From a virus (taxonomy: Duplodnaviria > Heunggongvirae > Uroviricota > Caudoviricetes): a stretch of 31,230 nucleotides of DNA. Position numbers and translations under genes: made by a program. This document shows, piece after piece, positions 656 to 27,175 of the stretch (positions within the stretch are counted from its first letter, which is position 1; every line of letters starts with the position of its first letter). The notes beneath the pieces were generated by a model that was not told the origin of the DNA, did no database searches, and was given only the letters and a program-made list of their open reading frames with translations. The stretch is taken from positions 1 to 31,230 of IMG/VR virus record IMGVR_UViG_2526164634_000010, one strand, 5' to 3'.

Positions 656-925
<270 letters not shown>

Positions 926-2725: not shown

Positions 2726-4116
2726 GCTATACCTCTCTTTTTCATGGCATCGAGCAGGATGTCCTGCACTGTTCGTTTTGAGTTGCGCCGCTCCATCACC
2801 ATTTCATCCATAGTGTCGGCAGCAATAATGTGGTGAATAAATACCGGACGATTGTGTCCGGCCTGTATCTGCCTGGTGGGGCCGATACGTTCAATAATTT
2901 GCTGATATTGCTCCAGGTCCCACCAGTGTGAGAAAAATACCAGTATATTTCCGCCGTCCTGCATGTTCAGGCCGTGGCCCGCGCTGGCTGGGTGTGCAAA
3001 GAGAACAGGAATCTTTCCGGAATTCCAGTCGCGCAGTGTCTGTGGATCCTGGTCGAGGTGACGACCGCGAGGGAATGCTTTAAGCAAGCGTTCAAGATCG
3101 TGTTTCCAGTGATAAGCAACCAGCACAGGTGCGCCAGCTGCTTCGGTCAGTATGCTGTCCAGCGCCTGTAGTTTGGTGTCATGCAGTTCTGACCAACTTC
3201 CGGTGTCATCTGTGTATACTGCGCCGCTGGCGATTTGCAGACACTTCAGTGTCTTTGCCGCGGCGTTCGGTGCTTCGATGCCTTCGCCATTCAGCTCGAG
3301 GAACATTTCCTTTTCCATTTCACGATACTGCTGACGGGCCTTCGGTGGCATATCCACGCGGATTACGTTATGGATGGGGTCTTTGATATCGAACCAGTCG
3401 GCCGCATCCAGCGAGAGGGTTACATCGGCTAACGCTCGCTGTATTTCACCCTGTGAGTGAGCAAAAGGCTCCAGTTTGGTCCAGCTCTGCCCCGGAAACT
3501 GTATCGAGTTGAACCAGCGTGAGGTAAACGCGCCGTAAGTGCGCCCGAGACGTTGCCCCTGGTCCACAAACCACGATTGTCCCCACAAATCTACCAGGCC
3601 GTTCGGTGCTGGCGTACCGGTGAGATTTATCCAGCGCCGGACATACTTATGCGCCACTTTGCCCAGCGCCGCCGCGCGCTTACCACCACCGCGCAGCCGG
3701 AAGGATTTTAGCCGGGTGCTTTCATCTGGAATGACAGTACCGAACGGCCATCGTTCTCCCAATTCTTCAATCAGCCAGACAAGGTTATCGTAGTTGATGG
3801 TGAACACGCTTGCGTTGCTGTTCGTCAGCGCCATAGAGCGCGCTTTGGCATTACCAATAATTGGCTGCACCTCGATATTGCGCAAATGTCCCCACTTCAG
3901 TGCTTCATCCGGCCATGTGCTGGCAGCCACGCGCAGCGGCGCGAGGACCAGTGCGGGGCATGTTTCTGCCCCTGCCATAAAGAGATCTTCCAGCGCAGTG
4001 AGCGTTGCCACGGTTTTACCCATTCCCATACCCGCCCAGATGTTGCCGCGCAGAATGTTAGTTTGGTGATTGATTATGAGGTTTTGATAAACTCTGGGGT
4101 GGAATATGCTATTCAT
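2722..4116 (-). CDS. SNF2-family DNA helicase / ATPase (phage replication)
   Basis: 464 aa; Walker A AGMGMGKT; DExx-type motif II VIPDESTRL; AGGTG RBS upstream of ATG at 4116. Confidence 0.85.
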   Translation of the reverse strand: MNSIFHPRVYQNLIINHQTNILRGNIWAGMGMGKTVATLTALEDLFMAGAETCPALVLAPLRVAASTWPDEALKWGHLRNIEVQPIIGNAKARSMALTNSNASVFTINYDNLVWLIEELGERWPFGTVIPDESTRLKSFRLRGGGKRAAALGKVAHKYVRRWINLTGTPAPNGLVDLWGQSWFVDQGQRLGRTYGAFTSRWFNSIQFPGQSWTKLEPFAHSQGEIQRALADVTLSLDAADWFDIKDPIHNVIRVDMPPKARQQYREMEKEMFLELNGEGIEAPNAAAKTLKCLQIASGAVYTDDTGSWSELHDTKLQALDSILTEAAGAPVLVAYHWKHDLERLLKAFPRGRHLDQDPQTLRDWNSGKIPVLFAHPASAGHGLNMQDGGNILVFFSHWWDLEQYQQIIERIGPTRQIQAGHNRPVFIHHIIAADTMDEMVMERRNSKRTVQDILLDAMKKRGIA

Positions 4117-4127
4117 TAATACACCTA

Positions 4128-4136
4128 TGGTAGAAT
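4128..4136 (+). promoter_or_regulatory. candidate extended -10 promoter (TGgTAGAAT) for the low-GC gene at 4180
   Basis: tggtagaat at 4128-4136 matches the extended -10 form TGnTATAAT at 5 of 6 hexamer positions; strong RBS ACGGAGG 7 nt before the ATG at 4180. Confidence 0.3.
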
Positions 4137-4179
4137 ATGGTCACTTCTCTCTCTATATATATAACTAACGGAGGCGGGT

Positions 4180-5705: not shown

Positions 5706-6467
5706 TTACGAGGAAGCGTTAGCTATTTGAGCTTGTGTAAATTCGAAACCAGAATTTTGTAACCGTTGCACTAGACGAGGAACTGTTTCACGTACATGGT
5801 CGTTGAAATTCAGATACAAAATCCCGTTAGCATCAGAAGGCTGTTCTAGGTGCTGTTTCTGAAGGATTGCTACATTGCTGCGCCCTAAGGACGAAAGAAG
5901 CATACCCATCTCGAGTACAACGTTCTGTCTTGCGCGGGGTTGGATTTCTGCTTCACCGGCGCGCTTTGAGTATCCCATATCATCAGGTGTCAAAAGAACA
6001 ATCCCGAAACGGGTAGCAGTTTGTCCTTGCCCAATTTCACGTTCAAGCTCTTCAATAATGGTGAGTCCAGTCCCTCCCGTATTCTGCAAAATGAAATGGT
6101 CTGGTAATCCAAGTTTATGAAGGATTAGCTCAAGTTGCTCCTTTGCAGTATGGTCATGGCCGTGAACAATGAATATCTTTTTGGGGAGCTCAGATGGCTG
6201 TTCTACGGCTAGTGGTGTTGCCGTGGGCGGCGTTCCTAAATGGGTCATTATTGCAGTTTCAACATTGGGACGTTCTTGAGGGTTACCTTGAAACTGAATG
6301 GTCCGGGTGGTGTAAAGGTTAACAATTACGCCATTCGTTAAACGATAGCAGTCACAAGTCTCACGCTGTTCGTGGGAAAAATTGGTGAACCCACACTCCC
6401 TCAAAAAGTCAGGAAAAGTTTCTCTCGGGTATGGATAGGTGATCGGCATTTCAGTTAGTTCCTGCAT
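5706..6467 (-). CDS. two-domain protein: unknown N-terminal domain + C-terminal TIR-like/SLOG-like Rossmannoid nucleotide-processing domain
   Basis: 253 aa; C-terminal half has KKIFIVHGHDH (strand-1 motif of TIR-like COG4271-type proteins), GGTGLTIIEELE (LOG/SLOG-like) and RQNVVLEMGMLLSSLGRSNVAIL (xNVxxExG motif); N-terminal ~95 aa unrecognised; AGGAA RBS; cotranscribed downstream of the DNA polymerase gene. Confidence 0.6.
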   Translation of the reverse strand: MQELTEMPITYPYPRETFPDFLRECGFTNFSHEQRETCDCYRLTNGVIVNLYTTRTIQFQGNPQERPNVETAIMTHLGTPPTATPLAVEQPSELPKKIFIVHGHDHTAKEQLELILHKLGLPDHFILQNTGGTGLTIIEELEREIGQGQTATRFGIVLLTPDDMGYSKRAGEAEIQPRARQNVVLEMGMLLSSLGRSNVAILQKQHLEQPSDANGILYLNFNDHVRETVPRLVQRLQNSGFEFTQAQIANASS

Positions 6468-13833: not shown

Positions 13834-16026
13834 ATGTCCGATAGCAAACCATGGGGAGCTACGCCTGATGAGTGGTTTCATTTCGACCTGGTATTGGGGA
13901 GAACTGATCATCTTCTCCCAGTTGTATGTAACCCCGGTGCGACCATATCCCCTGATAGTAAACTGAAAGCGCTGGGTAAGACGCCAAGTCGCTATAACCG
14001 GGACCGCCAGGTCACCGGTATTGCTCAATGGACCGGGTATGTTGTTACTGAGCATGATTTTGCCCGCTGGTCGAATGAACCGGATTATGGCATCTGCGTG
14101 CGTACAGGCCATGGCTGGCTGGCGCTGGACTGCGATAGCGAAGATGAAGACATTCAGGCAGATATTCGCAAAACGCTTGTGCAACTTCTGGGGGAGTTGC
14201 CGCCGCGACGCTGGCGAGCAAACAGTAATAAGTGTCTGTATCTGCTGGCCGTTGATGGTGATTTCTGTAAGCGTATCCATCGCCTGGCGGGGGATATGGG
14301 CATTATCGAGTTGCTGGCGAACGGGCAGCAGTTCGTTGCCTGTGGTACGCACAGCAGCGGCGCGCGTATTGAATGGGACGGTGGTTTGCCGGATGAACCT
14401 CCGGCTATTACTGGTGAGCAGCTTGAAACGCTGTGGCAGCGCCTGGCTGAACAACTCCCTGTGTCGGTAACCACCGAAGCGGGCAACACGAAGATGCGCG
14501 ACCGATCAGCATTCACGCCCGGCGCGACGGATGATACAGCTGAATATCTTGATGCCAATGGCTGGACGCTGCTGGATGGCGCAAATGGTGAACGATATAT
14601 CCGCTGTCCGTTTGAAGACGGCCACAGTAGCGGGGGCGATCCAACAAGCACAGCTTATTTTCCTGCGGGAACCGCGGGCTTTGAGCAGGGGCATTTTAAA
14701 TGCCTGCATGCCAGTTGTGCGCATCGTGATGACGGAGATTTCCTTAATGCCATCGGGATCCGCAACGACGATTTCGAAGATCTGACCAGCACCGAAGTGG
14801 CGGAACCTTTACCGCTGCCTGCTTTCGAGCGTGATAAATGGGGGCGTATCGAGGCAACCATCAGCAACGCAGCCAAAGCAGTAGTACGCCCTGATTTTGT
14901 GGACATCGATATTCGCTTTGACCAGTTCCGCGACGAAATCATGTTTGCCTCTGCAGGATCCGGACAATGGCGAGCATTCACCGATGCGGATTATGCGCGC
15001 CTGCGCATCACGATGGAAAAGCGGGGATTTAAACCTGTTGGTCGTGAACTTATTCGCGATGTGGTGTTACTTGCAGCCGATGAACAACCATTCGATTCAG
15101 CGATTACCTGGCTGAACGGGCTGGAGTGGGATGGCGTGCCGCGCATCGAATGTTTCTACCATACGCACTTCGGTACAGCCGACACGCCTTATACCCGTGC
15201 GGTGTCTATGTACATGTGGACCGCGTTGGCGGGGCGAGTACTGGAGCCAGGCATCAAAGCGGATATGGTGCCGATCCTCGTTGGTCCGCAGGGCTGCGGT
15301 AAGTCTTCCGGAGTGGAGGCACTGAGCCCTGATCCTGCGTTTTTTACTGAAATCTCTTTTGCCGAAAAAGACGATGATCTCGCTCGAAAAATGCGTGGTC
15401 GGCTGGTGGCAGAGATTGGTGAACTGCGCGGACTTAATACCAAAGAGCTGGAGTCAATCAAAGCGTTTGTGACGCGTACTCACGAAAACTGGATCCCGAA
15501 ATACCGGGAGTTCGCCACCCAGTTTCCTCGTCGCCTGGTGTTCGTTGGTACCACCAATGAGGACGAATTCCTTGCGGACAAGACTGGTAACCGTCGCTGG
15601 CTCCCCGTGGAAGTGTCGAAAGTCGACGTGAAAGCGATAAAAAGAGATCTCCTTTTACTTTGGGCTGAGGCTCGTGAGGTGTTTCAGCGTCTGGGGGGTA
15701 TCCAGTTCCGTGAGGCTGAACAACTGGCAGCGAGTGTCCATGAACAGTACACCATCAAGGATGCTTGGCTTGAAACGGTAGAGAAATGGCTCGACACGCC
15801 AGACCTGATGACTAATGAACTTCCGCGAAATTGCGAATTTTTACGCGCAAGTGATGTTTTGCGTGATGCGATTGGGCTAAATCCTGACCGCATCGGAAAA
15901 CGCGAAGAAATGCGAATTAGTAATGTTTTGCAAAATTGCGGGTATAAGCGTGCCCAAAGGCGAATTGGGGGGAAAATGACTCGAATTTTTGAGGCGGTGT
16001 CCCAACCTGTACCAGCCTCAAAATAG
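13834..16026 (+). CDS. replication protein: primase-polymerase N-terminal domain + P-loop NTPase (VirE/D5-like)
   Basis: 730 aa; Walker A VGPQGCGKS; Cys/His-rich segment CPFEDGHSSGG...HFKCLHASCAH; directly downstream of cro. Confidence 0.8.
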   Translation: MSDSKPWGATPDEWFHFDLVLGRTDHLLPVVCNPGATISPDSKLKALGKTPSRYNRDRQVTGIAQWTGYVVTEHDFARWSNEPDYGICVRTGHGWLALDCDSEDEDIQADIRKTLVQLLGELPPRRWRANSNKCLYLLAVDGDFCKRIHRLAGDMGIIELLANGQQFVACGTHSSGARIEWDGGLPDEPPAITGEQLETLWQRLAEQLPVSVTTEAGNTKMRDRSAFTPGATDDTAEYLDANGWTLLDGANGERYIRCPFEDGHSSGGDPTSTAYFPAGTAGFEQGHFKCLHASCAHRDDGDFLNAIGIRNDDFEDLTSTEVAEPLPLPAFERDKWGRIEATISNAAKAVVRPDFVDIDIRFDQFRDEIMFASAGSGQWRAFTDADYARLRITMEKRGFKPVGRELIRDVVLLAADEQPFDSAITWLNGLEWDGVPRIECFYHTHFGTADTPYTRAVSMYMWTALAGRVLEPGIKADMVPILVGPQGCGKSSGVEALSPDPAFFTEISFAEKDDDLARKMRGRLVAEIGELRGLNTKELESIKAFVTRTHENWIPKYREFATQFPRRLVFVGTTNEDEFLADKTGNRRWLPVEVSKVDVKAIKRDLLLLWAEAREVFQRLGGIQFREAEQLAASVHEQYTIKDAWLETVEKWLDTPDLMTNELPRNCEFLRASDVLRDAIGLNPDRIGKREEMRISNVLQNCGYKRAQRRIGGKMTRIFEAVSQPVPASK

Positions 16027-16027
16027 A

Positions 16028-16182
16028 GGTTGGTACATTTTAACTAATTGAATTTAAAGGTCAGTACCAACTGTACCATCTGTACCAACCTAATTACTAA
16101 GAACCCCATATATATATATAAGTCGCTTGGGGAAAAGGTTTGAAAAGAGCTGGTACAGGTGGGTACAGATTGGTACAGGCCG
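16028..16182. repeat. iteron cluster, candidate phage replication origin
   Basis: GTACCA at 16064, 16073, 16082 (9-bp spacing) and inverted TGGTACAG/GGGTACAG at 16151, 16161, 16171 (10-bp spacing) flank a (TA)7 tract at 16108-16121; a further tggtaca at 16031; immediately downstream of the primase gene. Confidence 0.5.
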
Positions 16183-16307
16183 AACAAGGAATTTTTTGCA
16201 CATAACAGCGTGTAATAAGCGAATCGGAACTGCGTTATCCACACCCACGGATAAACAGACGTGGTTCTCAGAAAATTTTTTCGTAGCAAAACGTAGAGGT
16301 CAGAGCT

Positions 16308-16730
16308 ATGCGTAATATTCAACAGGTTTTAGAGCGCTGGGGTGGCTGGGCAGCGAGTGAAGGTGGTAGCGTCTACTTTCCTCCTGTTGCAGCCGGGTTT
16401 AAGAATCTGCTACCCGCGACGCAGTCTGGAAGGCTGAAATGCAGTGACAATGACGGTCTTATCATCAACTCCGCTATGAGCTGCCTGAAGAAAAAAGATC
16501 CGTATCTGTGCACGCTCCTTGAGTGGCATTACGTCCAGGCCATGCCCGTGCGGGCGATGGGTGAGAAGCTCGGCGTATCTCACACCCACGTTCTGAAGAG
16601 GCTTCAGGCGGCAGAGGGATTTATTGACGGTTGCTTAGCCATGCTGGATGTGGTGCTCGAAATGGATCAGTCGGTTCAGTCAAAGCCTCAGGCTATCAGG
16701 ACTTTGCGTAGGAGCTGCTCGGCGGCATAA
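16308..16730 (+). CDS. Q-type late antiterminator (phage 82/QuuD-like)
   Basis: 140 aa; N-terminus MRNIQQVLERWGGWAA, AAGFK and RLQAAEGFIDG segments resemble remembered Q82-family sequences; located upstream of the lysis cassette. Confidence 0.7.
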   Translation: MRNIQQVLERWGGWAASEGGSVYFPPVAAGFKNLLPATQSGRLKCSDNDGLIINSAMSCLKKKDPYLCTLLEWHYVQAMPVRAMGEKLGVSHTHVLKRLQAAEGFIDGCLAMLDVVLEMDQSVQSKPQAIRTLRRSCSAA

Positions 16731-16761
16731 TATCCAGCAATCAATCACGTAAGGGAACCAG

Positions 16762-17102
16762 ATGGCTCTGATCAGCGTTCGCAACAGATTTGAAAGCTTC
16801 ATGGAACAGAGGTACCCAGACCTGTCGTTGCAGGTCAAAGGTAATATTGGCGCATCAATGAAGGCTCAACTTGGCATCGGATTGAACGAGAATTGTACAG
16901 TGAAGATGTTACTTACTGTGATTCAGCAGTTCAGTTGATGTGGACACTCTTTCAGGCAGGTGTTCTGGCCGAACGAAGAGCTACCAGCGTTACGCTTCCT
17001 GCGCTGAAGGCAAAGCCGGATAGCTTCTACGATGCGGGTTATAACGAAGGTATTCAGGACTGTCGTAAACATCTGACGGCATCAGGCATCAAGGTAAGAT
17101 AA
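16762..17102 (+). pseudogene. two overlapping short ORFs in different frames (possible frameshifted moron)
   Basis: Frame 1 ATG 16762 to TGA 16938 (58 aa); frame 0 open from 16845 to 17102 (track ORF 16893-17102, TTG start; internal ATG at 16937); no family recognised. Confidence 0.25.
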
Positions 17103-17169
17103 AAAATAGTTGTGGAATTCCAAAAAGCCGATTAGCCTGATATCTGTTGAAAACAGTTCATCACGAAGA

Positions 17170-17193
17170 GGCTTCCGCAAGGGGGCCTTTTTT
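17170..17193 (+). terminator. intrinsic terminator (possible tR'-like terminator of the Q-proximal transcript)
   Basis: 7-bp stem GGCUUCC/GGGGGCC (two G-U pairs) with GCAA loop followed by TTTTTT at 17188-17193. Confidence 0.45.
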
Positions 17194-17418
17194 ATTGCCC
17201 CATTCTGGGGAAAAGCTAATAAAACAGGGCTTTCGCTGCGAAAAAACGCTATGCAGTTTTTGCCCTTTTTTATGCACCTTTTATTCACTCGAATTTCGTC
17301 ATTCTGGACCACTTAAGTTGATTAAATAGGCCTTTCATCGCAAATCTATTGCGAGCGGGGATCGTGTGGTTCCTATAACGTACATTATGTTAAATAACTT
17401 CCTTTTTTAACAAATTTA

Positions 17419-17427
17419 ACAAGGTTC
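17419..17427. repeat. target-site duplication, left copy (acaaggttc)
   Basis: Identical 9-mer directly abutting both IS termini; IS66 usually gives 8 bp, so the ninth base may be coincidental. Confidence 0.7.
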
Positions 17428-17457
17428 GTAAGCGGCTCGCCAGAACCGTATTGATAT

Positions 17458-19029
17458 TTACTGAGAGGTCAGATCAACTTTCCAGGGCAACAGATCGCGT
17501 ACCCGGTTTGCCGGCCAATCCTGGATATGCTCAATGACGTAACGCAGCCATTTTTCTGGTTCCACATTGTTCAGACGGCATGTGCCGATCAGCGAGTACA
17601 ACACCGCCGCATGTTCGCCACCGCTGTCGGAACCCGCGAACAGCCAGTTTTTCCGGCCTACGGCCACTCCCCGTAAGGCGTTCTCTGCGATGTTGTTGTC
17701 GATTTCCACCCAGCCATTACTGCAGTACACGTTCAGGCCATCCCACTGTTTCAGCAGGTATGCGAACGCTTTTGCCGTATCCGAGTGACGCGACAGTGTT
17801 TTCATCTGAGTCTGTATCCAGTCATACAGTGACTGCATCAGTGGCGCAGCTCTGGCTTTTCTTGCCGCCAGACGCTGTTCTGCTGTACATCCCCGGACTT
17901 CTGCCTCTATGGCATACAGTTCACCGATACGCTGCAGGGCTTCCGTGGTGATGTCGGTGGGCACTCTTGCATGCACATCGTGGATTTTTCTCCGGGCATG
18001 AGCCATACACGCGGCTTCCGTTATTCTGCCGGATTCGTATAACACCCGGTAACCACCGTAAGCATCGGCCTGAAGCACACCGCTGTAACCGGCCAGATGA
18101 TTTTGTGGATGGATACCTTTCCGGTCCGGTGAGTACGCGAACCAGACCGCCGGGGGCATTTCCGAACCGGCGTTACGGTCATCACGGACGTAGACCCACA
18201 GCCGGGCGGTCCGGGTTTTACCGCTGCCCGGCTCCTGGACCGGGACGGGGATATCATCAGCATGGACTTTACCGGGCATCAGCACATACTGGCGCAGGAC
18301 GTCATACAGCGGCTCCAGCAGTTCAGCAACGGCACCTGTCCAGCGCCCCAGCGTGGCGCGGCTCAGCTCCACGCCCTGGCGACGGTATATTTCTGACTGG
18401 CGGTATAACGGCAGATGGTCTGCATATTTCCCGGTAACAACATGGGCCAGAAGCCCCGCTCCGGCATAACTGCGTGCAATGGGTTTTGAAGGTACTGTTG
18501 CCTGCACGATATGGTCGCACCGACAACAGGCCAGTTTCGGACGTTGTGTTTCGATAACCTTAAAGGCGCTGCTGATAAGCTCCAGTTGCTCTGACACATC
18601 ACACCCCAGAGGACTGAGGTCACCACCACAGGCCGGGCAGCATTCCTCTTCCGGCCGGATGACCCGGGTTTCACGGGGAAGTGAGGCCGGTAACGGTTTA
18701 CGGGCTGAAGACTGGCGCAGGGCGGATGGCAGTACCGGGTCATATTGCTCACCCAGCGTTTCCGCCATTTCTTCCTGAAGTGCGCTGATTCGCTCCTGTG
18801 CTTCCTGTATCTGCCGTTCGGTTTTAGCGCGAAGTTTTTCTGAGCTTTTACCGAACTGCATGCGCTGCAGTTTCGCAACCAGCGCCTTCAGCCGGTTGAT
18901 TTCGGAAGCATAAGCCGCCACCCGCTGTGAGAGCAGGCGGTTGTATTTCGCCATCTGGCGGATGGTGTCCTGTTGCGTCTGCAACAGTGCCCGCAGGCGG
19001 GCATTCTCATGAGCAAGTGAGGTGTCCAT
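17458..19029 (-). CDS. IS66-family transposase TnpC (orf3)
   Basis: 523 aa; N-terminal coiled-coil, Cys motif CPACGG...CCRCDH and catalytic core typical of IS66 TnpC. Confidence 0.8.
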
Positions 19030-19048
19030 ATCCTCACTTTACAACGGG

Positions 19049-19396
19049 TTATATGCGGATGCCAGCGCGTTCCGTTCGTTTCGGGTGCTTCCAGTCGATG
19101 CCTTCGAGAAGCATGGACAACTGAGCCGGAGTAAGGTGAACCTTTCCATCGCGGGTGACCGGCCAGACGAAGCGGCCCCGCTCCAGGCGTTTGGTGAAGA
19201 GGCACAGTCCGTCACTGTCAGCCCACAGCACTTTTATCTGGTCACCCCGGCGTCCGCGGAAGATGAACAGATGCCCGGAGAACGGGTCATCCTTCAGGAC
19301 GTTCTGAACTTTTGAGGCCAGGCCGTTAAAACCATTTCGCATATCGGTGATACCGGCAACCAGCCAGATACGCGAACCGGCAGGGAGAGATATCAT
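19049..19396 (-). CDS. IS66-family TnpB (orf2)
   Basis: 115 aa; MISLPAGSRIWLVAGITDMRNGFNGL matches the remembered IS66 Orf2 family. Confidence 0.8.
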   Translation of the reverse strand: MISLPAGSRIWLVAGITDMRNGFNGLASKVQNVLKDDPFSGHLFIFRGRRGDQIKVLWADSDGLCLFTKRLERGRFVWPVTRDGKVHLTPAQLSMLLEGIDWKHPKRTERAGIRI

Positions 19397-20046
19397 CAGT
19401 GGCTGCTCCCTTTCATTTCGCGGATAAGTGTCTGTAATAACGCCGGTGTCAGTTCACCTTTCAGCCTGAGAGTTCCGGCCGGCAGAACCAGCTCGCAGCA
19501 CAGACTGTCTGGCAGTGTATTTATCTGTTCAGGTATCTGCACTGGTGCCGGGATTTTATTATCCGGCTCCGGAGTTAACGTCACGGGAAGTAGCGATGTT
19601 TCATGTTCGCCGGGCGGTTGCAGGCCACCGTTACGCCAGAGATGCCGCCAGTTAAAGAGCAGGTTATCGTTAATTCCATTCTCTCGAGCTATTTGTGCGA
19701 CACAGGCACCGGGTAAAAGAGTTTGCTGAACCAGTCTCCATTTAAACTCCGGTGAAAATCGGTTCCGGCGGGGTTTCTCTGCTTTCACAGGCTGAGTCAC
19801 GGTCGGGGCTGAAGGGTATCGCCCCGGGAAAAGAGCCCGGGCCAGTTGCCCGCAGGAATATTCACCGGAAAGAGGCCAGTCAGTGAATACCTGGTGAAAT
19901 CGCCTCACCAGAGAAAAAATGGCGGTTTTGCTGACACCAGTCTGCGCAGAAATGCGCGGGTACGACAGTGACTCGTCAAATCTCAGCTGTAGCACACGCA
20001 GGATCAATTCTGGATTATCTGCCAGTACCGCTTTTCGTGCATTCAT
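19396..20046 (-). CDS. IS66-family TnpA (orf1), HTH protein
   Basis: 216 aa; first ORF of the IS66 operon; overlaps orf2 start. Confidence 0.7.
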   Translation of the reverse strand: MNARKAVLADNPELILRVLQLRFDESLSYPRISAQTGVSKTAIFSLVRRFHQVFTDWPLSGEYSCGQLARALFPGRYPSAPTVTQPVKAEKPRRNRFSPEFKWRLVQQTLLPGACVAQIARENGINDNLLFNWRHLWRNGGLQPPGEHETSLLPVTLTPEPDNKIPAPVQIPEQINTLPDSLCCELVLPAGTLRLKGELTPALLQTLIREMKGSSH

Positions 20047-20131
20047 CTTAAATGTCCTTTTACTGCGAAAATGGACATTAGTATCGGAAACAGGAAAGGG
20101 AGGCGAAAGACGGTTTAAATGATGCGCTTAC

Positions 20132-20140
20132 ACAAGGTTC
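20132..20140. repeat. target-site duplication, right copy (acaaggttc)
   Basis: Identical to 17419-17427. Confidence 0.7.
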
Positions 20141-20260
20141 GCTATGGCGAACTTTTTTTGTATTCAGGGCCCACCGAAGGACGGCTCATAACCCAATCCT
20201 ACGGGCGTATACGCAGGGCCCGCCTTTCAACAACACCCCGTAATGGCGGAGGTGGGAAGT

Positions 20261-20602
20261 ATGAAAATGCACAATGCTCCTCATTCCTGGCCTGACTTAC
20301 TGGAACTCTTACAAAGTTGGTGGCGTGGAGATACGCCGTTGGGCGCAGTGGTTATGTCAATTGTTATGGCTGGCTTGCGCATTGCCTATTTTGGCGGTGG
20401 CGGCGGCTGGAAACGAAAAACGCTTGAGATTTTGCTCTGTGGTGCTCTGACGCTGACCTTTGCATCCGCTCTTGAGTATGTTGGATGGCCTAAATCTCTT
20501 TCTGTTGCCATTGGTGGTGGTGTTGGGCTGATCGGTGTCGATGCTATTCGTGGGGCTGCAATGCGAGTAATCGGTAACAAGTTTGGTGGCTCTAAGGAGT
20601 AA
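20261..20602 (+). CDS. class I holin with dual-start motif (lambda S-like organisation)
   Basis: GGAGGTG RBS then ATG-AAA-ATG (MKM) at 20261/20267; hydrophobic segments; an upstream in-frame ATG at 20243 is less likely; directly precedes the endolysin. Confidence 0.75.
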   Translation: MKMHNAPHSWPDLLELLQSWWRGDTPLGAVVMSIVMAGLRIAYFGGGGGWKRKTLEILLCGALTLTFASALEYVGWPKSLSVAIGGGVGLIGVDAIRGAAMRVIGNKFGGSKE

Positions 20603-20605
20603 TTC

Positions 20606-21082
20606 ATGCAGACACTAAATTCCCAACGCAAAGCTTTCCTGGATATGGTGGCATGGTCAGAAGGAACGGATAACGGGCGACAACCGACACGTAATCACGG
20701 TTATGACGTTATCGTCGGAGGTGAGTTGTTCACTGATTACTCCGATCACCCTCGCAAACTTGTCACGCTAAACCCGAAGCTTAAATCAACAGCCGCAGGC
20801 CGGTATCAGCTTCTTTCACGCTGGTGGGATGCCTACCGCAAGCAGCTTGGCCTGAAAGATTTTTCGCCAGAAAGTCAGGACGCTGTGGCGCTGCAGCAGA
20901 TTAAAGAGCGTGGCGCTTTACCGATGATTGACCGTGGCGATATTCGTCAGGCAATCGACCGTTGCAGCAATATCTGGGCGTCGTTACCTGGTGCAGGTTA
21001 CGGTCAGTATGAACATAAAATCGGTGACCTGATTTCCAGGTTTAAAGATGCTGGTGGGGTGGTAAATGAAGCTGACTTATAA
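20606..21082 (+). CDS. R: lambda R-type endolysin (lytic transglycosylase)
   Basis: 158 aa, near-identical over long stretches to remembered lambda R (QRKAFLDM.AWSEGTDNGRQ.TRNHGYDVIVGGELFTDYSDHPRKLVTLNPKLKST); AAGGAG RBS. Confidence 0.9.
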   Translation: MQTLNSQRKAFLDMVAWSEGTDNGRQPTRNHGYDVIVGGELFTDYSDHPRKLVTLNPKLKSTAAGRYQLLSRWWDAYRKQLGLKDFSPESQDAVALQQIKERGALPMIDRGDIRQAIDRCSNIWASLPGAGYGQYEHKIGDLISRFKDAGGVVNEADL

Positions 21083-21590
21083 GATTGTCATCGCGGCATT
21101 TTTCTTCTCTGCCTTTGGGGCGCTCGTCTGGTCTGCAAACCATTACCACAGCAAGTATCAGGCAGAAAAGTTGCGGGCTGATAAAGCGGAAGGTGAAGCT
21201 GAATATCAAGGGAAAGTGATAGCTAATCAGGCATTAAACTTCAATCGTTTTAACCAGATAGCAGAAAACGCAAGCCGATTAAATTCTCTGGTCGACATCG
21301 GTCACGAGAAGACAGTCATCAAATACCGTGAGGTTCTGCTCCGTGAAAAGAACTGTGATTTCCCTGTTCCTGTTGATATTGCTGTCGGGTTGCTCAACTA
21401 CGCGAACCGTTTACGCGCCAGCGCATTGCACGCCGATTCCGGGGACATTGACTCAGCCGGTGATCGTGCCACTACCACCAGAACGTTGACATATTGCCAG
21501 GCTGTTCTGTGGATTAACCCACTGTTGGCAGCCATCGAGAAGGCGAATAACCAGTTGGCTGGTGTCCGACAAATAGAACAGTCCCGGTAA
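21066..21590 (+). CDS. Rz: Rz-like i-spanin
   Basis: 174 aa; N-terminal TM helix then coiled-coil periplasmic domain; overlaps endolysin 3' end; contains embedded +1-frame lipoprotein ORF. Confidence 0.7.
   Translation: MKLTYKIVIAAFFFSAFGALVWSANHYHSKYQAEKLRADKAEGEAEYQGKVIANQALNFNRFNQIAENASRLNSLVDIGHEKTVIKYREVLLREKNCDFPVPVDIAVGLLNYANRLRASALHADSGDIDSAGDRATTTRTLTYCQAVLWINPLLAAIEKANNQLAGVRQIEQSR
21343..21489 (+). CDS. Rz1: Rz1-like o-spanin lipoprotein embedded in Rz (+1 frame)
   Basis: Manual read: GTG 21343, VKRTVISLFLLILLSGCSTTRTVYAPAHCTPIPGTLTQPVIVPLPPER, TGA at 21487-21489; lipobox LLSGC and Pro-rich mature part; alternative in-frame GTG at 21328. Confidence 0.55.
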   Translation: MKRTVISLFLLILLSGCSTTRTVYAPAHCTPIPGTLTQPVIVPLPPER

Positions 21591-25954: not shown

Positions 25955-27175
25955 ATGAAATATTTTTTCAATACCCGGCTGGGGGAAACCCGCTATCAGC
26001 TGGCTGACGGCTCGTTGCTGTGCAGAGACGTGCCGATAGGACGAACAGGTAAGCAGCTCTATGGTGCTGATGACCTGCCAAAACTGAAACCCGATAAGTT
26101 CGGTGAAATAGTCGTCACGCGTTCTCCTGAGCAGGTATTCCATCCGGCCACGCTTGCCTCATTCGAAGGGATGAGCATCACGATTCTGCATCCTGAAGAT
26201 GAAAACGGGAATGTGCGGCTGGTAAATCCCGAGAACTGGAAAGAGCTTGCTGTCGGGCACCTCCAGAATGTCCGGCGCGGGACGGGTGAGCAGTCTGATT
26301 TGATGCTGGCTGACCTTATCGTCAAAGACGAAAACGCCATTCAGCTTATCGAAGATGGCCTGCGCGAAGTGTCGTGCGGCTATGACGCGGAGTACGAGCA
26401 GACCGAGCCAGGTAAAGCTGAGCAGGTCGATATTACCGGAAACCATGTGGCTCTTGTCCCTAAAGGCAGAGCCGGAAATCGTTGTGCAATTGGAGACAGA
26501 GACACAATGGCAAATCAAAAGAAAAACTGGTGGAACCGCATGCGTGCGGCCATCAAGACAGGAGATGCCGACACCATGAACGAACTGGTGGAGTCGGCTC
26601 CCGCATCGGTTACAGGAGATGAGGGGGATTTGCCGCAGGGCGTTAATCTCAATATCAACCTGTCCCCGCAGCAACCACTACCGGACAAAGCACCAGAGAT
26701 GGGGGAAGGCCCAACCGGCGACAGTGATGATGACCTCAAAACATTACTGAAAGCCCTGCTGGCTAAGCTGGAAGGAAATGCCACGGGCGATAACGATAAT
26801 AAGCCTGACGATAATCCGACCGGTGACGGCGAGGACGATGAAGAGGAAACCACGATTACTGGTGACTCAGCCTGGCGTGCCGAAGTTATTGTTCCGGGTA
26901 TCGATCTGAGCCGTAAGATGAAACCGACCGCGTTCAAACGCGAGGTTCTGGCTTCCGCTGACAAAACGCTGGTTCGCCAGATAGTCGGTGATGCGGATAT
27001 CCGCAAATTGCCGAAACAATCGGTCGACATGGCGTTTAATGCCGTGTCTGAGATTGCCAAAGGGCGAAACACCCGCGCCACCACCGGCGATGCACAGCGC
27101 CTAAACATGGGCATGACCAGTATCGCTTCCCTGAACAAACAAAACGCTGAATTCTGGGCAAACCGTAAAGGGTAA
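25955..27175 (+). CDS. scaffolding protein / prohead protease-like (DUF2213-like)
   Basis: 406 aa; acidic low-complexity middle region (GD/ED-rich); between head-morphogenesis and capsid genes. Confidence 0.55.
   Translation: MKYFFNTRLGETRYQLADGSLLCRDVPIGRTGKQLYGADDLPKLKPDKFGEIVVTRSPEQVFHPATLASFEGMSITILHPEDENGNVRLVNPENWKELAVGHLQNVRRGTGEQSDLMLADLIVKDENAIQLIEDGLREVSCGYDAEYEQTEPGKAEQVDITGNHVALVPKGRAGNRCAIGDRDTMANQKKNWWNRMRAAIKTGDADTMNELVESAPASVTGDEGDLPQGVNLNINLSPQQPLPDKAPEMGEGPTGDSDDDLKTLLKALLAKLEGNATGDNDNKPDDNPTGDGEDDEEETTITGDSAWRAEVIVPGIDLSRKMKPTAFKREVLASADKTLVRQIVGDADIRKLPKQSVDMAFNAVSEIAKGRNTRATTGDAQRLNMGMTSIASLNKQNAEFWANRKG

Follow-up and report, generated by a model that had tools for sequence, protein, structure and literature searches.

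Stx2a phage PA4 (PST1-1; KP682372) carries an antisense copy of IS629 between its Q/stx2 region and the holin gene, and its genome was sequenced from DNase-protected DNA of induced culture supernatants (PMC4587872). Within phage types, the copy number and position of IS elements were the main source of variation (PMC4587872). The Q proteins described by PF06530 form the Q21 family (PMC9388147), and a gene of this kind is present in the prophage analysed here. Its window, the whole stretch of 31,230 nucleotides that was studied (positions 1 to 31,230 of IMG/VR record IMGVR_UViG_2526164634_000010), contains a complete copy of the IS66-family element IS679 between the Q gene and the late genes, with the tnp genes on the minus strand (Table 1). 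We regard the identity of the element, the recency of its arrival and its placement relative to the Q-loading site as well supported, and the argument below turns on what such an insertion would mean for late transcription.

Table 1. Features around the IS679 insertion, in window coordinates
Feature	Position	Strand	Basis
Q antiterminator gene, 140 aa, Q21/Q933W family	16308..16730	+	PF06530 full length, 5e-42
Two small ORFs, 58 aa and 54 aa, from Q to the late promoter	16762..17102	+	ORF list; RefSeq annotation of FDAARGOS_1059 (L001)
Predicted Q-dependent late promoter pR'	17110..17138	+	Q relatives of 50-70% identity; collinear with 933W pR', qut and terminator
GATATCTG, candidate sigma-dependent pause element	17139..17146	+	Positional counterpart of GATAAGAG after the -10 in relatives and 933W
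Terminator T1, tR' equivalent: 12-bp stem, GCAA loop, U6	17165..17198	+	Fold -17.1 kcal/mol
Terminator-like T2: GGGC...GCCC then U6, A-tract upstream	17219..17275	+	Fold -19.5 kcal/mol, z = -3.05
Spacer between T2 and T3, ~145 bp	17276..17418		Identical in 611R5 (L002), ~80% conserved in L022
Left target-site duplication copy, ACAAGGTTC	17419..17427		Adjoins left end of IS
IS679	17428..20131	-	Terminal inverted repeats 17428-17453 and 20106-20131; 100% to IS679 copies; many-copy boundary comparison
tnpC, DDE transposase, 523 aa	17458..19029	-	DDE_Tnp_IS66 (PF03050) 1.3e-103; zf-IS66, LZ_Tnp_IS66 and IS66_C domains
tnpB, IS66 accessory protein, 115 aa	19049..19396	-	PF05717 2.8e-40; NF033819 above cutoff
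tnpA, accessory protein, 216 aa	19396..20046	-	HTH_Tnp_1 7.5e-17; NF038385 6.3e-85, above cutoff
Right target-site duplication copy, ACAAGGTTC	20132..20140		Adjoins right end of IS
Terminator T3, AAGGTTCGC-TATG-GCGAACTTT then T-run	20134..20162	+	Terminator scan; fold -12.5 kcal/mol, z = -5.3
Lambda-family holin, dual start (ATG AAA ATG)	20261..20602	+	PF05106 1.2e-27; annotation of L001 (FDAARGOS_1059) and L002 (611R5)

The inserted element and its target site

IS679 was reportedly first described by Han et al. in 2001 from the EPEC plasmid pB171. The copy in our window shares with the reference the length of 2704 bp, the GTAAGCG termini and the tnpA-tnpB-tnpC order, without differences; over its full length, it is 100% identical to copies in FDAARGOS_1059 and in O111:H2 strain 12A, and copies annotated as IS679 by RefSeq in NZ_CP066032, NZ_CP066034 and NZ_CP077479 match it at 100% over 2703-2704 bp. 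The termini read GTAAGCGG...GCGCTTAC, and the inverted repeats, which begin with GTAA, are imperfect (GTAAGCGGCTCG... vs. GTAAGCGCATCA..., with agreement at 17 of 26 positions). Since the matches of other copies begin within a few bases of 17428 and stop within a few bases of 20131, the boundaries of the element are fixed. The three genes lie on a single strand, tnpA and tnpB sharing one base, and TnpC matches NF033517 at 2.7e-142 (474 bits against a cutoff of 180). All three reading frames are intact and have the same sequence as in other IS679 copies, and the present copy is presumably active; the fresh target duplication, for its part, implies that some IS679 copy has been active recently. 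The preliminary description had recognised an IS66-type element of 2704 bp with minus-strand transposase genes, and both the IS66 protein models and the perfect match to IS679 bear this out. The element itself is ordinary and already known, and its novelty is low.

The intact duplication given in the preliminary description is likewise exact on both sides of the element, and the chance of a 9-bp repeat abutting both IS ends exactly is ~4e-6. Its length is atypical: the duplication is 9 bp here but 8 bp at eight other simple IS679 insertions. Duplication length is a property of the insertion event and not of the element, for which 8 bp is typical, and the difference leaves the identification as IS679 untouched. 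Comparison with IS-free alleles in related genomes, suggested at the outset, placed ACAAGGTTC once at the empty site of both the FDAARGOS_1059 prophage and the phage record vB_EcoM-611R5, and 18 prophage loci in IMG/VR likewise have the 9-mer once, with the site empty. With the element removed, the window differs from the FDAARGOS_1059 prophage by three substitutions and one to five one-base indels over 28.5 kb. The occupied allele, on the other hand, was absent from the 5,426 complete E. coli genomes searched, from among 35 IS679 ends in IMG/VR, and from GTDB species genomes and JGI metagenomes, and an exact-product look-up of the junction-spanning ORF was negative. The existence of the empty allele in a near-identical prophage, together with the lack of the occupied allele in every other sequence searched, indicates that the insertion is real, recent and private to the strain, and the early suggestion of a recent event thus holds.

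FDAARGOS_1059 contains ~16 copies of IS679 that match at 100%, a sign that IS elements are active in its lineage. Its prophage, empty at the IS679 site, carries a different IS66-family element, ISCro1-like, in the tail-fibre assembly gene, outside the region covered by our window; the prophage may therefore already have been impaired before the IS679 event. FDAARGOS_1059 also has a frameshifted invertase, and if the IS679-bearing genome shares both lesions, its prophage was probably defective for infectivity beforehand, irrespective of what IS679 does. In another strain (L014), IS26 has inserted independently into the intergenic region that IS679 occupies here. With IS679 here, IS26 in the same spacer and ISCro1 in the tail-fibre assembly gene, the prophage family is under ongoing IS-driven change. 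A preference of IS679 for hairpins or terminators was considered and rejected: the seven other target sites that could be reconstructed have no consistent structure, and a hairpin lies nearby in one only. Our literature search found no paper on vB_EcoM-611R5 phages, and relatives of the L079 type had no near match among deposited phages.

The Q region, the predicted late promoter and three terminators

The Q protein is 42% identical to the Q of 933W, and likewise to that of PA4; a PDB sequence search returned a marginal Q21 match alone (E = 0.13). The two small ORFs that follow match phrog_37465 and phrog_15831; they are accessory and deleted in phage 611R5. Alignment of relatives places the predicted pR' immediately behind them, with a -35 of TTGTGG (17110-17115), a 17-nt spacing, a -10 of TAGCCT (17133-17138) and a start near 17145. 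The palindrome TGGAATTCCA (17113-17122) overlaps the -35 and is a candidate Q-binding element; across the aligned relatives and 933W, the candidate palindromes (TGGAATTCCA, GCGTAATTAC, TTACGATCGTAA and GTGCGGCCCGCA) vary along with the divergence of Q. The same alignment suggests the GATA(A/T) element after the -10 as a candidate pause element. A consensus promoter scan found no plus-strand promoter-like site in 16000-20700 at the scan threshold. A looser scan proposed TTGCGT-16-CATAAT over the Q stop codon (16704-16731) and an extended -10 at 17319-17327; both were rejected as the comparative alignment and the 933W annotation agree on 17110-17138.

Downstream of the predicted promoter, the preliminary description had placed the element between Q with one terminator and the holin gene. 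The position is correct, but there are three terminators and the element sits within the stem of the third. Nearly all aligned relatives, and 933W too, have a terminator as far from the promoter as T1 is here (in L075 it is not evident). T1 and T2 remain on the Q side of IS679, whose left end lies ~283 nt downstream of the predicted pR' start. The insertion point falls in the 5' arm of the T3 hairpin and precedes the holin start codon by ~120 bp; alignment with the empty site shows that the duplication rebuilds the whole of T3 on the holin side; T3 predates the insertion. T3 and the 115-nt leader are specific to this phage lineage, and no Rfam family matches the leader, the search giving weak terminator-like matches alone. 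The spacer between T2 and T3 has a promoter-like site on the minus strand (TTGTTA-18-CATAAT, 17413 to 17384). That T3 could serve as tR' for a promoter located in this spacer is unsupported, with relatives placing the promoter upstream of T1. Within IS679 itself, the terminator scan finds only weak terminator-like sites on the plus strand.

The holin gene is the first of the late genes and is followed by those for the endolysin (20606-21082) and Rz (21066-21590); all these, as well as the terminase and portal genes, lie downstream of IS679 on the plus strand, as Q does. The PHROG matches of the terminase are generic and give no pointer to a packaging strategy. The prophage sits beside yfhL and is ~44 kb long in the empty-allele relative, including another IS.

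Probable late transcription through the element

We suggest that IS679 entered the late operon's untranslated leader only very recently, in the lineage of this strain itself. A polymerase starting at pR' would pass the putative Q-loading region, which comparison places at 17110-17146, and then meet T1 and T2; with the promoter at its predicted location, Q would join RNA polymerase upstream of IS679. In the lysogen, the insertion would be silent because transcripts from pR' should stop at T1 and T2, the element has no outward promoter-like site on the plus strand and T3 shields the holin gene. On induction, the Q-loaded polymerase would have to traverse 2.7 kb of IS DNA, in which it runs antisense to tnpA, tnpB and tnpC, followed by T3. 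We think it somewhat more likely than not that such read-through would be enough for late-gene expression, provided that the rest of the prophage works. Read-through appears likelier than a polar block because Q is predicted to load upstream, the polymerase is processive once loaded with Q, and the inducible phage PA4, whose Q is of the same family, has an antisense IS629 at the corresponding place. Q-loaded complexes are known to ignore terminators (10.1101/651190). What speaks against it is the length of IS679, double that of IS629, and the C-richness of the first ~600 nt of its antisense RNA, which would favour Rho loading on any unmodified polymerase. The added 2.7 kb (~6%) and, if shared, the tail-fibre IS of the relative may matter more for virion production than polarity does, and the insertion is an ordinary event that, on its own, probably does not shut the phage down.

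The most serious competitor is strong polarity; the preliminary description considered a polar effect likely, with lysis and virion production perhaps inactivated or attenuated. Late transcripts would then end within the antisense element or at the regenerated T3, leaving the holin, endolysin and virion genes unexpressed. The prophage would thereby be locked in, which would be the opening step of its domestication. The placement of the element, between pR'/T1/T2 and all the late genes, is what this would require; the RNA across it would be untranslated as well as C-rich at its start, an intact terminator follows, and the IS26 and ISCro1-like insertions in relatives can be read as accumulating IS lesions. 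Yet Q is predicted to load before the polymerase reaches the element, polymerase modified by Q is resistant to intrinsic termination and suppresses polarity, the scan reveals no strong plus-strand intrinsic terminator inside IS679, and PA4-type Stx2a phages of the same topology are induced and encapsidated; on this balance, we consider strong polarity possible but unlikely. A slightly bolder form of the claim seems to us doubtful: IS679 would break the link between Q and the genes for lysis and virions, so that a prophage just three substitutions away from its intact allele is caught while changing from lytic-competent to locked-in. Were it true, cargo of the early region, such as the TIR-domain protein, would stay with the prophage, and there would be no cost to the lysogen because the duplication rebuilds the terminator stem at the landing site.

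Two further readings fare worse. The insertion could have been selected, either as an insulator of the lysis genes or as a coupling of IS679 activity and spread to induction, with the element riding in virions and late transcription passing through it; T3 is indeed regenerated on the holin side and the element lies within DNA that would be packaged, and beyond this the idea has no more than plausibility in its favour. But the allele is private to one genome and so gives no evidence of having spread or been selected, other IS679 targets lack any preference for terminators or hairpins and T3 was there before the insertion, making selection very improbable. That a repeat-collapsed or chimeric join misplaced an IS679 copy here, the many identical copies in the lineage being a classic source of misassembly, has next to no chance of being right, as the two junctions coincide exactly with the canonical IS ends, the flanks are otherwise collinear with the empty allele, and the perfect direct duplication, single-copy in that allele, would not arise from a chimeric join.

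IS insertions in prophages are commonplace, and the significance of this one on its own is small. Of modest use is that the occupied and empty alleles, three substitutions and a few one-base indels apart, form a clean natural pair for studying how far antitermination by a Q21-family complex carries transcription through a 2.7-kb antisense IS. The comparison also predicts a late promoter, a candidate Q-binding palindrome and terminators for a Q subfamily that occurs widely in E. coli prophages and is so far uncharacterised.

Comparison with Q21, 933W and PA4

Within the Q21 family, Q21 itself has a direct repeat as its binding element, whereas the candidate here is a palindrome. The predicted cassette is laid out like that of 933W: an A-rich tract, then a -35 that overlaps a palindrome, then a -10 and a GATAAG-type element; a terminator lies ~50-80 nt downstream, and further terminators precede the late genes. 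The two differ in the palindrome (TTACGATCGTAA in 933W, TGGAATTCCA here), in the -10 (TATCAT vs. TAGCCT here) and in the initial transcribed sequence; the present prophage has no tRNA or stx genes and, unlike 933W, has two small ORFs between Q and the promoter.

For the insertion, the counterpart is PA4. Its IS629, a 1.3-kb element of the IS3 family, interrupts an ORF, whereas the element here is 2.7 kb and has landed in a non-coding leader, in a terminator stem; for PA4, induction and encapsidation are established. What the two have in common is the arrangement itself: an IS in antisense orientation to late transcription, with a Q gene of the Q21/Q933W family, pR' and terminators on one side and the holin gene on the other.

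Identity, boundaries and recency of the insertion

The element spans 2704 bp at positions 17428–20131, with termini GTAAGCGG...GCGCTTAC, imperfect terminal inverted repeats (17 of 26 positions matching) and ACAAGGTTC at both flanks (17419–17427 and 20132–20140), which agrees with the preliminary description of an IS66-type element with an intact duplication at 17419–20140. The minus-strand transposase genes reported there are likewise present as three ORFs (see table) whose scores against IS66 accessory and DDE transposase models far exceed the curated cutoffs. In a megablast search of 5,426 complete Escherichia coli genomes, full-length, 100% identical copies were found in FDAARGOS_1059 (chromosome and plasmid) and O111:H2 strain 12A, all of them annotated as IS679, and the boundaries are fixed by many independent copies whose matches run from 17428 to 20131 to within a few chance bases. 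The inserted DNA is the known element IS679, and it arrived by standard transposition.

With the IS and one 9-mer removed, the rejoined site is uninterrupted and 100% identical in the prophage of FDAARGOS_1059. The phage record vB_EcoM-611R5 and 18 prophage loci of IMG/VR also have it without an insertion; ACAAGGTTC is single-copy in every one of these alleles, as had been predicted. Over 28.5 kb, the IS-free window and the FDAARGOS_1059 prophage differ by three substitutions and one internal one-base indel, and a further four one-base indels within the first 25 bases may be alignment-edge effects. The occupied allele had no carrier among the 5,426 complete genomes, the flank of the window insertion was absent from all 35 left ends of IS679 in IMG/VR, and the exact junction was found in neither GTDB species genomes nor JGI metagenomes. 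Given a near-identical empty allele and no occupied allele elsewhere in these collections, the insertion is real, private to the source strain and, as first read from the intact duplication, recent. The chromosome of FDAARGOS_1059, the empty-allele relative, holds about 16 identical IS679 copies.

Other simple IS679 insertions have 8-bp duplications in eight of eight cases (seven in complete genomes and one in IMG/VR; L088, L119–L125), and an 8-bp model for the window insertion would need an extra base in the IS. As the IS ends are invariant, the 9-mer is single at the empty site and no 8-bp model fits, the staggered cut here is 9 bp, a minor oddity that is irrelevant to the element's identity. 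In a further locus (L118; NZ_CP066032.1 706900–725100), a pair of IS679 copies in inverse orientation, separated by about 12 kb, has swapped target-duplication halves (AGATTAAC, GATTATTC), which indicates an IS-mediated inversion of the segment with the Ag43 autotransporter gene.

Prophage context and the predicted late promoter

The prophage is integrated beside yfhL, and the window covers its left two-thirds. The annotation of the FDAARGOS_1059 copy runs from integrase, helicase, TIR-domain protein, DNA polymerase, DUF2800, DUF2815 and a LexA-like repressor through a VapE-type primase, Q, two small ORFs, holin, endolysin and Rz to terminase, portal, head and myovirus tail genes. The Pfam family matched by Q is the Q21 family (PMC9388147). 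The two small ORFs (58 and 54 aa; about 16766–17050), between Q and the late promoter, are absent from vB_EcoM-611R5 and 606R2, which retain a few codons of them in fused form; the difference amounts to a moron-like indel immediately 5' of pR'. The early TIR-domain gene (5706–6467, minus strand), named from the RefSeq annotation of an identical gene, may be anti-phage defence cargo; its product weakly resembles the NAD+ hydrolase Cap12 of CBASS (1e-8, well short of the cutoff). The DUF2213 head gene is intact in the window (406 aa, 25955–27175) and "frameshifted" in FDAARGOS_1059 by a one-base difference at 26706; since this position lies in a G-run, the frameshift may be a sequencing error of that assembly. 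Embedded in Rz (21066–21590), a +1-frame ORF (21328–21489, plus strand) with a lipoprotein-like signal, …LLSGCSTT…, is consistent with a nested Rz1 spanin gene.

Consensus promoter scanning was unhelpful for locating the late promoter, and we located it by comparing the DNA 3' of Q among IMG/VR loci encoding Q relatives. Relatives with a Q only 50–70% identical have a common architecture: an A-rich tract, a -35 (TTGTGG, TTGCGT or TTAGTG) overlapping a short palindrome, CAAAA, a -10 (TAnnnT) 17 bp from the -35, a GATAAGAGTGG-type element and, in nearly all (none is evident in L075), an intrinsic terminator some 50–80 nt further on. The annotated pR', qut and first terminator of 933W (Q 42% identical) are arranged in the same way, and even the upstream AAAAAATAGTT is identical. 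The predicted pR' and terminators T1–T3 were placed in the window by aligning these architectures; several terminators between pR' and the late genes are found in 933W, too. The -35 palindrome (17110–17123; L023–L029, L046, L075–L079) varies with Q divergence (TGGAATTCCA, TGTAATTACA, GCGTAATTAC, GTGCGGCCCGCA; TTACGATCGTAA in 933W, L126 1167–1194) and is, from sequence comparison, a candidate Q-binding element or specificity determinant for this Q subfamily. The T2–T3 spacer (17276–17418, about 145 bp) is identical in 611R5; L022 conserves it at roughly 80% and has a coding gene after it in place of T3. In the window, the minus strand of the spacer has a promoter-like site, TTGTTA-18-CATAAT (17413 to 17384).

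Features of the prophage around the insertion (window coordinates unless stated)
Feature	Position	Strand	Details
att core	869–886		18 bp
Q	16308–16730		Pfam PF06530, full-length match
pR' (predicted)	17110–17138		TTGTGG-N17-TAGCCT, start near 17145; comparison with Q relatives and 933W
T1 (predicted)	17165–17198		-17.1 kcal/mol
T2 (predicted)	17219–17275		-19.5 kcal/mol
tnpC	17458–19029	minus	523 aa
tnpB	19049–19396	minus	115 aa
tnpA	19396–20046	minus	216 aa
T3 (predicted)	20134–20162		AAGGTTCGC-TATG-GCGAACTTT then T-run; -12.5 kcal/mol, z = -5.3
ISCro1-like element	L127 4384–7081 = NZ_CP066032.1 about 2623383–2626080		beyond right end of window

The target terminator and late transcription

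IS679 entered T3 in its 5' arm, at a site some 283 nt 3' of the predicted start and roughly 120 bp ahead of the holin dual-start codon (20261). Seven of the nine T3 stem bases fall within the duplicated 9-mer, so its right copy and the downstream DNA rebuild a complete T3; folding of the left junction gave no significant structure. Q and its downstream terminator had been described as cut off from the holin; this holds for T1 and T2, but the target itself is a terminator, T3, and it survives on the holin side. Since other IS679 target sites show no hairpin preference, the hit on a terminator looks coincidental.

In the lysogen, the insertion should be silent, as pR' transcripts would end at T1 and T2, a scan found no plus-strand promoter-like site in the IS or at its edge, and the retained T3 would still guard the holin. 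On induction, Q would join the polymerase at the pause near the promoter, before the IS is reached, and Q-loaded polymerase disregards pauses and terminators (10.1101/651190). The Stx2a phage PA4 (KP682372), with a Q 42% identical to that of the window phage, is a close precedent: its IS629 sits between Q/stx2 and holin in antisense orientation to late transcription, and the genome sequence comes from DNase-protected DNA in supernatants of ciprofloxacin-induced cultures (PMC4587872). Upstream loading, terminator resistance and the PA4 precedent lead us to lean towards Q-dependent read-through across IS679. The same points make the polar block of late transcription that was initially proposed the less likely outcome. 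The plus strand of the IS has only weak terminator-like sites; it is C-rich across its first 600 nt or so, which would favour Rho action on unmodified polymerase.

Other IS lesions and known systems

Another strain's copy of the prophage (L014; IMGVR_UViG_2529292837_000017) has an IS6-family element (3541–4171) in the Q–holin spacer, just after window-equivalent 17346 and some 80 bp 5' of where IS679 inserted. The element has the end GGCACTGTTGCAAA and a transposase fragment matching NF033587 at 2.4e-51; here an IS struck this region independently. In the FDAARGOS_1059 copy, about 44.4 kb between att cores, an ISCro1-like element of the IS66 family splits a tail-fibre assembly gene (8-bp duplication, TATAAAGC), and an invertase-like recombinase is frameshifted. 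If the source genome shares these lesions, infectivity was probably compromised before IS679 arrived, and IS679 would bring the prophage to about 47 kb, compared with about 42.7 kb for 611R5, which is free of IS elements.

Overall, the original observation is correct and the finding ordinary, its main use being a natural test case for Q read-through, with a predicted late promoter for this Q subfamily as a by-product. The regulatory context is a Q21/Q933W-type late cassette, and an antisense IS between Q and holin is already documented in Stx phages.
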